Assembly: GCA_963759105.1 (NCBI GenBank)
Contig: CAVWXW010000004.1
Span: 47,963 to 111,962, forward strand
Direction of reading: 5' to 3'
Source of the DNA: an uncultured delta proteobacterium
GTDB lineage: Bacteria > Myxococcota_A > Polyangia > Haliangiales > Haliangiaceae
DNA: 64,000 bases
The notes below the pieces were generated by a model. It worked only from the letters and a program-made list of their open reading frames with translations, was not told the DNA's origin and ran no database searches. A program made the position numbers and the translations under genes. Shown piece after piece: positions 4,866 through 5,444 of the stretch. Numbering within the stretch: the first letter of the stretch is position 1; each line of letters begins with the position of its first letter.

Positions 4866-5444
4866 AAGTTTTTTTTTTTTTTTGGGGGGGGGGGGGGGGG
4901 GGGGGGGGGGGGGGGGGGGGGGGGGGGGGGGGGGGGGGGGGGGGGGGGGGGGGGCGGCGAGCGGCGGCGCGCCAAGAGCGATGGCAGGGAAGGGTGCGGA
5001 CGCCGTAGGGGGGGGGGGGGGGGGGGGGGGGGGGGGGGGGGGGGGGGGGGGGGGGGGGGGGGGGGGGGGGGGGGGGGGGGGGGGGGGGGGGGGGGGGGGG
5101 GGGGGGGGGGGGGGGGGGGGGGGGGGGGGGGGGGGGGGGGGGGGGGGGGGGGGGGGGGGGGGGGGGGGGGGGGGGGGGGGGGGGGGGGGGGGGGGGGGGG
5201 GGGGGGGGGGGGGGGGGGGGGGGGGGGGGGGGGGGGGGGGGGGGGGGGGGGGGGGGGGGGGGGGGGGGGGGGGGGGGGGGGGGGGGGGGGGGGGGGGGGG
5301 GGGAAAAAAAAAAAAAAAAAAAAAAAAAAAAAAAAAAAAAAAAAAAAAAAAAAAAAAAAAAAAAAAAAAAAAAAAAAAAAAAAAAAAAAAAAAAAAAAAA
5401 AAAAAAAAAAAAAAAAAAAAAAGGGGGGGGGGGGGGGGGGGGCT
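4866..5444. repeat. extreme homopolymer block: T14, G about 72, a 55-nt unique spacer, G about 294, A about 119, G about 22
   Basis: Read directly from the sequence, 4866-5444. The six-frame ORFs across it are poly-Pro/Phe/Gly/Lys translations. It sits in the cysK-marR intergenic region. Confidence 0.95.

Follow-up and report, generated by a model that had tools for sequence, protein, structure and literature searches.

The closest described counterparts of a long homopolymer tract in an assembled sequence are artefacts of base calling and public metagenome contigs littered with homopolymers; in living genomes, phase-variable (contingency) tracts offer a further comparison. Nanopore base callers overestimate some short homopolymers (2-5 nt) by one to two orders of magnitude (Delahaye and Nicolas 2021, PMC8486125), and in two-colour Illumina chemistry G stands for no light and A for both lights (fastp paper, PMC6129281). 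The Illumina artefacts of this kind are read tails, which are limited by the length of the read and end at contig ends. Here we describe a tract of pure homopolymers inside a 64-kb stretch of bacterial DNA (64,000 nt, hereafter the window) and compare it with these systems and with related loci from public data. The comparison leaves us confident that the tract arose as an artefact of sequencing or assembly in a badly supported, error-rich stretch, where it probably overwrote part of a real gene, and that it is not a biological feature.

The tract is internal, about 4.9 kb from the start of the window and with native sequence on both sides, and it lies between a gene for a cysK-like PLP-dependent enzyme (PALP; 3890-4816, plus strand) on its left and marR (start at 5493) on its right. 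It comprises five runs within 574 nt, to which no strand is assigned, namely T15 (4869-4883), G71 (4884-4954), G296 (5008-5303), A119 (5304-5422) and G20 (5423-5442), together with a 53-nt island of ordinary sequence (4955-5007) that separates G71 from G296. Direct reading of the letters gave zero foreign bases within any run, so that the 296-nt run and the two that follow it amount to 435 uninterrupted homopolymer bases. The run lengths listed in the earlier note (about 72 G, about 294 G, about 119 A, about 22 G and T14) were right to within one or two bases and its placement of the tract between cysK and marR was correct, while its judgement that this is an artefact and not natural DNA is borne out by the purity of the runs, by shuffled sequences, by the relatives and by the indel-dense flanks. 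Elsewhere in the window no run exceeds A7, G6, T5 or C6, the only exceptions being C10 and C17 at 10301-10338, and G15 occurs 348 times in the window as against 0 times in 100 dinucleotide-preserving shuffles. The related loci, 1.39 Mb of sequence, have G13, T12, C9 and A8 as their longest runs, and no run of 8 nt or more was found in the seven closest of them (L081 to L086 and L112). In this last respect the tract is unlike a contingency tract, and lengths of 71-296 nt are far outside the range known for such tracts. A search of positions 4700-5600 for structured RNAs or known RNA families returned only a sub-threshold chance match. That T15 might be the T-tail of a cysK terminator was ruled out, as the scan gave no terminator-like site and L081 has coding sequence at this place.

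The two C runs (C10 at 10301-10310 and C17 at 10322-10338) are part of an 82-nt stretch (10264-10345) that has the stop codon of APH on one side and a terminator-like hairpin on the other. This C-rich stretch is absent from L081, where the sequences on both sides of it adjoin, and indel quality around it seems normal. Either a genuine indel or a lesser artefact of the tract's kind, read from the other strand, could account for it.

The exact junction G25A25 was found in 25 public metagenome contigs, in about 15 of them within about 150 nt of a contig end, and G30A30 gave no match in viral contigs. In six contigs of JGI metagenome origin (L091, L094, L098, L099, L100 and L107), probably low-quality assemblies that deserve a flag, we found dozens of pure runs of 12-83 nt, made of all four bases and spread over several kilobases. 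The tract shares with these littered contigs the alternation of pure runs of different bases with short ordinary islands and the direct passage from G to A, and it differs from them in having five runs concentrated in 574 nt, one of which is unusually large for the class, the longest run in the public contigs found being 83 nt. Because junctions between G runs and A runs recur in 25 public contigs, we conclude that the tract belongs to a recurring class of assembly artefact.

To what extent the tract replaced native DNA was examined by comparison with related loci. A search with the MarR protein, stitched across its frameshifts, returned proteins 79-88% identical, none closer than 88%, and from Kofleriaceae where they were named. 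Exact look-ups of three ORFs of the window gave no match in the protein collection, so that the window's own gene calls are absent from it, and an exact 25-mer of the marR operator gave none in metagenome contigs. In L081, the closest relative among the loci found, a convergent gene ends 5 nt past the stop codon of cysK, and positions 4829-4868 of the window (minus strand) align with the 3' end of this gene, the stop codon and a C-terminal LAPL motif being common to both; these positions, homologous to L081 3884-4651 and to the protein P0122 from JGI (430 aa, with a HETGH motif), are thus the native 3' end of a convergent gene in the window. Within this segment, window positions 4853-4865 match L081 3925-3937 and provide an anchor to the left of the tract. 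When the island was compared with all of L081 on both strands, its best local match was a GC-rich stretch of 29 nt at 4023-4051 with a score of 33 (shuffled islands: mean 22.4, standard deviation 2.9, with 2 of the 100 reaching 33), and the two anchors are 91 nt apart in the window as against 85 nt in L081. The minus-strand translation of the island is FPAIALGAPPLA, which resembles a conserved C-terminal motif of the L081 and P0122 proteins, FDANAAGAPLLA, and we interpret the island as a remnant of the coding sequence of the convergent gene. A copy of the island or of the flanks from elsewhere in the window, as in a chimeric read, was ruled out, since all three are unique within the window apart from trivial matches of at most 18 nt.

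Since the island stands at the spacing expected from L081, the native sequence appears to have been overwritten rather than inserted into, and T15 and G71 together probably displaced some 85 nt that were coding and that are ordinary sequence in L081; this argument draws on a single relative, about 86% identical here, and on a 29-nt match equalled by 2 of 100 shuffles. The view that some 580 bp had been inserted between two adjacent genes does not fit with a left flank and an island that are both homologous to the 3' end of the convergent gene. Homologues of the convergent protein are rare, five being found in a collection of 5.8 billion proteins, and the full-length ones have 430-442 aa and the HETGH motif. 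Only about 614 nt separate the stop codon of the convergent gene from the right end of the tract, so that at least 0.7 kb of real sequence has probably been lost if the gene was intact as in its homologues; with a locus like that of L081 the loss could reach about 3.5 kb. To the right of the tract, alignments with L081, L085 and L086 identify 5443-5494 (plus strand) as the native region upstream of marR, the native sequence restarting about 35 nt before the palindrome ATATCGCGATGCGATAT (5478-5494), which is kept in the relatives and overlaps the start codon of marR.

The tract is surrounded by a block of low-quality contig (1525-7224, without strand) that contains 46 indels seen in the window only and without counterpart in intact relatives. 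An indel was counted as unique to the window when multiple alignments showed it there and nowhere in two or more intact relatives; by this count 1266-4817 contains 33 and 5465-7641 contains 13, the earliest lying at 1525 and the latest at 7224, compared with 6 and 3 (9 in total) when L081 was put to the same test as a control. Between about 1.2 and 7.2 kb, a frame-tracking HMM and a plot of GC3 by frame show a switch of coding frame every 60-600 nt, as against frames that stay unbroken for 1-4.6 kb at a time between 16.5 and 25 kb. In alignment with L112, the density of indel columns is about 21 per kb over 1.5-7.25 kb and drops to about 3.4 per kb over 7.25-16 kb. The tract sits at the centre of this poor block, whose roughly 6 kb carry random single-nucleotide indels at a rate of about 0.6-0.9%; these break genes that are intact in the relatives, as in low-coverage, under-polished long-read regions. 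Because the indels lie mostly outside homopolymer contexts (3 of 18 insertions lengthen a run), the error profile suggests noisy long reads, that is, thinly covered and under-corrected single-molecule data.

The genes on both sides of the tract, which had been described as ordinary, carry the marks of this block. Alignment of the cysK-like gene with five homologues disclosed four 1-nt insertions and one 1-nt deletion (near 4186, 4532, 4593, 4633 and 4726), all of them frameshifting and common to no homologue, and only the stitched protein, assembled from pieces in three reading frames, matches PF00291 from end to end (E 3e-68). The marR gene (5493-5965, plus strand) is frameshifted near 5820 and again before its end, and in the gene for a voltage-gated ClC channel (5962-7640, plus strand), intact in L081, L082, L085 and L086, the frame is switched some ten times as far as 7224; all 13 of the window-unique indels to the right of the tract are in these two genes, and nine of them are frameshifting.

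Frame changes are also scattered beyond the bad block, at 7650-9233 and, for example, at about 12.7 kb, 46 kb and 53-55 kb, and RtcB, intact in L081, has three 1-nt indels in the window; polishing of the consensus therefore seems to have been imperfect throughout the contig. The region at 16490-24326 (minus strand) holds a gene cluster that, judged from translations, is apparently clean. It contains an ABC transporter resembling C39-peptidase/ABC exporters (17378-19630), two ORFs with the look of HlyD-type membrane-fusion proteins (16490-17341 and 19643-21163) and, within 21306-24326, what may be an outer-membrane factor, all on the minus strand and recognised from their translations only, and as a whole the cluster resembles a putative bacteriocin or peptide export system.

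An Illumina two-colour artefact, with dark cycles written as G and signal in both channels as A, could have entered the contig at assembly, during gap filling or through polishing with short reads. The tract is nearly all G and A, the letters of the no-light and both-lights states (PMC6129281), the G25A25 junctions stand at the ends of contigs with names in short-read style (NODE_ and JGI), and miscalls made cycle by cycle would keep the length of the sequence, as the first sub-tract roughly does. The tract is nevertheless internal and not at a contig end, the place where such read tails come to lie, and the window-unique indels around it do not form a short-read error profile. Random 1-nt indels are not known as a type of error made by short reads, and effective short-read polishing would have removed them; moreover, 435 contiguous homopolymer bases exceed, to our knowledge, any single short read. 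Poly-G dark-cycle reads joined to poly-A, the example given in the earlier note, are for these reasons a poor fit to the tract, and we consider a two-colour origin unlikely.

Corruption of the sequence in a file or in memory after assembly, or its deliberate overwriting, is still harder to credit. A synthetic edit, or 2-bit packing filled with constant bytes, would produce perfectly pure runs, as all of these are, and would replace native sequence at about equal length, as in the first sub-tract, and the T-to-G boundary is separated from the G-to-A boundary by 420 nt, a multiple of 4. Against this, A119 and the other boundaries fall off a 4-base grid, and corruption of 2-bit packing was rejected because only this one spacing is divisible by 4. 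Nor would corruption account for an indel-rich block with the tract at its centre, and the second sub-tract did not preserve length if the convergent gene was full length like its homologues. We hold this explanation to be very improbable.

A mis-join of two unrelated contig ends bearing low-complexity read tails, which would make the contig chimeric as had been suspected, might be invoked because homopolymer blocks in public data are commonest at contig ends and because the divergence from L081 changes sharply near 7390. This explanation meets with two flanks that are both syntenic with the relatives, in matching order and orientation, and with an island between the runs that is native to the locus. 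The order in L085 is a sensor kinase (HK/PAS), cysK, a 76-nt spacer, marR and ClC, and that in L081 and L112 is HK/RR, GAF/PAS, cysK, 4.1 kb, marR, ClC, RtcB, APH, Aldedh and SprT; the window has the same gene order and orientation as L081 and L112, with a nucleotide identity of 87-95%, and L082 to L084 and L086 have different genes upstream of marR. Since synteny continues across the junction with L081/L112 and with L085, the contig is not mis-joined at the tract and the gene order indicates that the two flanks belong together, leaving a mis-join only the slightest chance. Comparing the adjacency of cysK and marR among relatives, which had been recommended as a check, gave an answer in two parts, as the genes are adjacent in L085 and are separated by other genes in L081. 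In both relatives the interval is ordinary sequence, and its size (76 nt in the one, 4.1 kb of genes in the other) indicates that the spacer is a variable insertion site.

Within the interval of L081, positions 3884-7143 (equivalent to L112 5884-9143) hold the convergent gene, which has an HExxH motif, and an ORF for an HNH endonuclease (Pfam HNH, E 3.5e-5); the HExxH-motif gene is split there into two ORFs, probably by a frameshift. The cysK-like gene has a wider distribution, with 85-93% protein identity and 77-92% DNA identity to genes in 80 MAG loci (L001 to L080) that are labelled, as deposited, as ten or more phyla. No flank similarity around the gene was found in these 80 loci, which are hence uninformative on the adjacency of cysK and marR. 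The gene has a GC content of 0.51-0.71 (at least 0.56 in all but one locus) as against 0.44-0.72 in its flanks, and it looks unusually conserved or widely transferred.

As to the change in divergence, the differences from L081 drop abruptly at about 7390, in the 3' part of the ClC gene, from 9-25 to 0-3 per 100 nt, and this point lies about 170 nt past the last window-unique indel. The drop could be a recombination boundary or a switch in the population whose reads built the consensus; taken as proof of a chimeric block it was not upheld, since the divergence is uneven over all of the 16 kb. In marR, third codon positions have an excess of substitutions, and this excess together with the heterogeneity of the divergence leads us to regard much of the divergence from L081 as real.

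That the window carries genuine giant homopolymers, for example an extreme contingency locus, is very unlikely. This reading has practically nothing in its favour except their presence in the file and the variation of the locus among relatives (spacers of 76 nt and 4.1 kb), and is contradicted by relatives without long runs at or near the locus, by runs that interrupt coding sequence conserved in those relatives and by a surrounding consensus that is demonstrably unreliable, and we know of no bacterial genome in which homopolymers of such length are maintained.

Returning to an artefact in a badly supported stretch, the events may be pictured as follows. Over approximately 4869-5442 a failure of the signal, of base calling or of the consensus step in sequencing would have written pure homopolymers, with a 53-nt burst of correct sequence surviving in the middle before the failure resumed. 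The failure would lie inside the block of about 6 kb (roughly 1.5-7.2 kb), which would have been built from very little, poorly corrected data of single-molecule type, and because there was too little supporting data in this block the homopolymers would have been left uncorrected. The overwritten DNA would include the 3' part of the gene for the convergent HExxH protein and whatever lay between this gene and the promoter of marR.

The most likely cause, we infer, is a failed read that was kept in a long-read assembly of low coverage. The data would be long reads, with nanopore more likely than PacBio CLR, and the failure would have affected one or a few reads, the error profile being the sole basis of the long-read attribution. 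The noisy, indel-type errors in the flanks are compatible with the nanopore data in which homopolymers are over-called. The tract departs from such over-calls, or from a stall, in that native bases are missing, about 85 nt under T15 and G71 (as judged against L081 only) and probably 0.7 kb or more under the second block, and in that three different bases follow one another directly. Because a pure over-call deletes no neighbouring bases, an episode in which the signal went out of range would be the better fit.

Whether the place of the failure was determined by the DNA itself is a further matter. A property specific to the locus and residing in the variable spacer, such as an unusual bulky base modification or a very stable structure, might have pushed the sequencer or base caller out of its range at this very place, in which case the homopolymers would mark chemically unusual DNA. 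We think this highly improbable; if it were true, the candidate property would sit in the segment that carries the rare gene for the HExxH protein.

Taking the tract as an artefact, about 6 kb of the contig (about 1.5-7.2 kb) must be considered unreliable and frameshifts elsewhere in the contig are suspect. The cysK-like gene, marR, the ClC gene and the upstream sensor genes are at risk of being annotated wrongly as pseudogenes, and gene callers can be expected to predict long proteins of poly-Pro, poly-Phe, poly-Gly or poly-Lys across the tract, such ORFs being already present in the list of open reading frames. In scans for unusual sequence the region should be masked. The tract itself is without biological meaning and its value is that of a quality flag for the contig, under which a real gene, whose rare product would have about 430 aa and an HExxH motif, has probably been partly erased.
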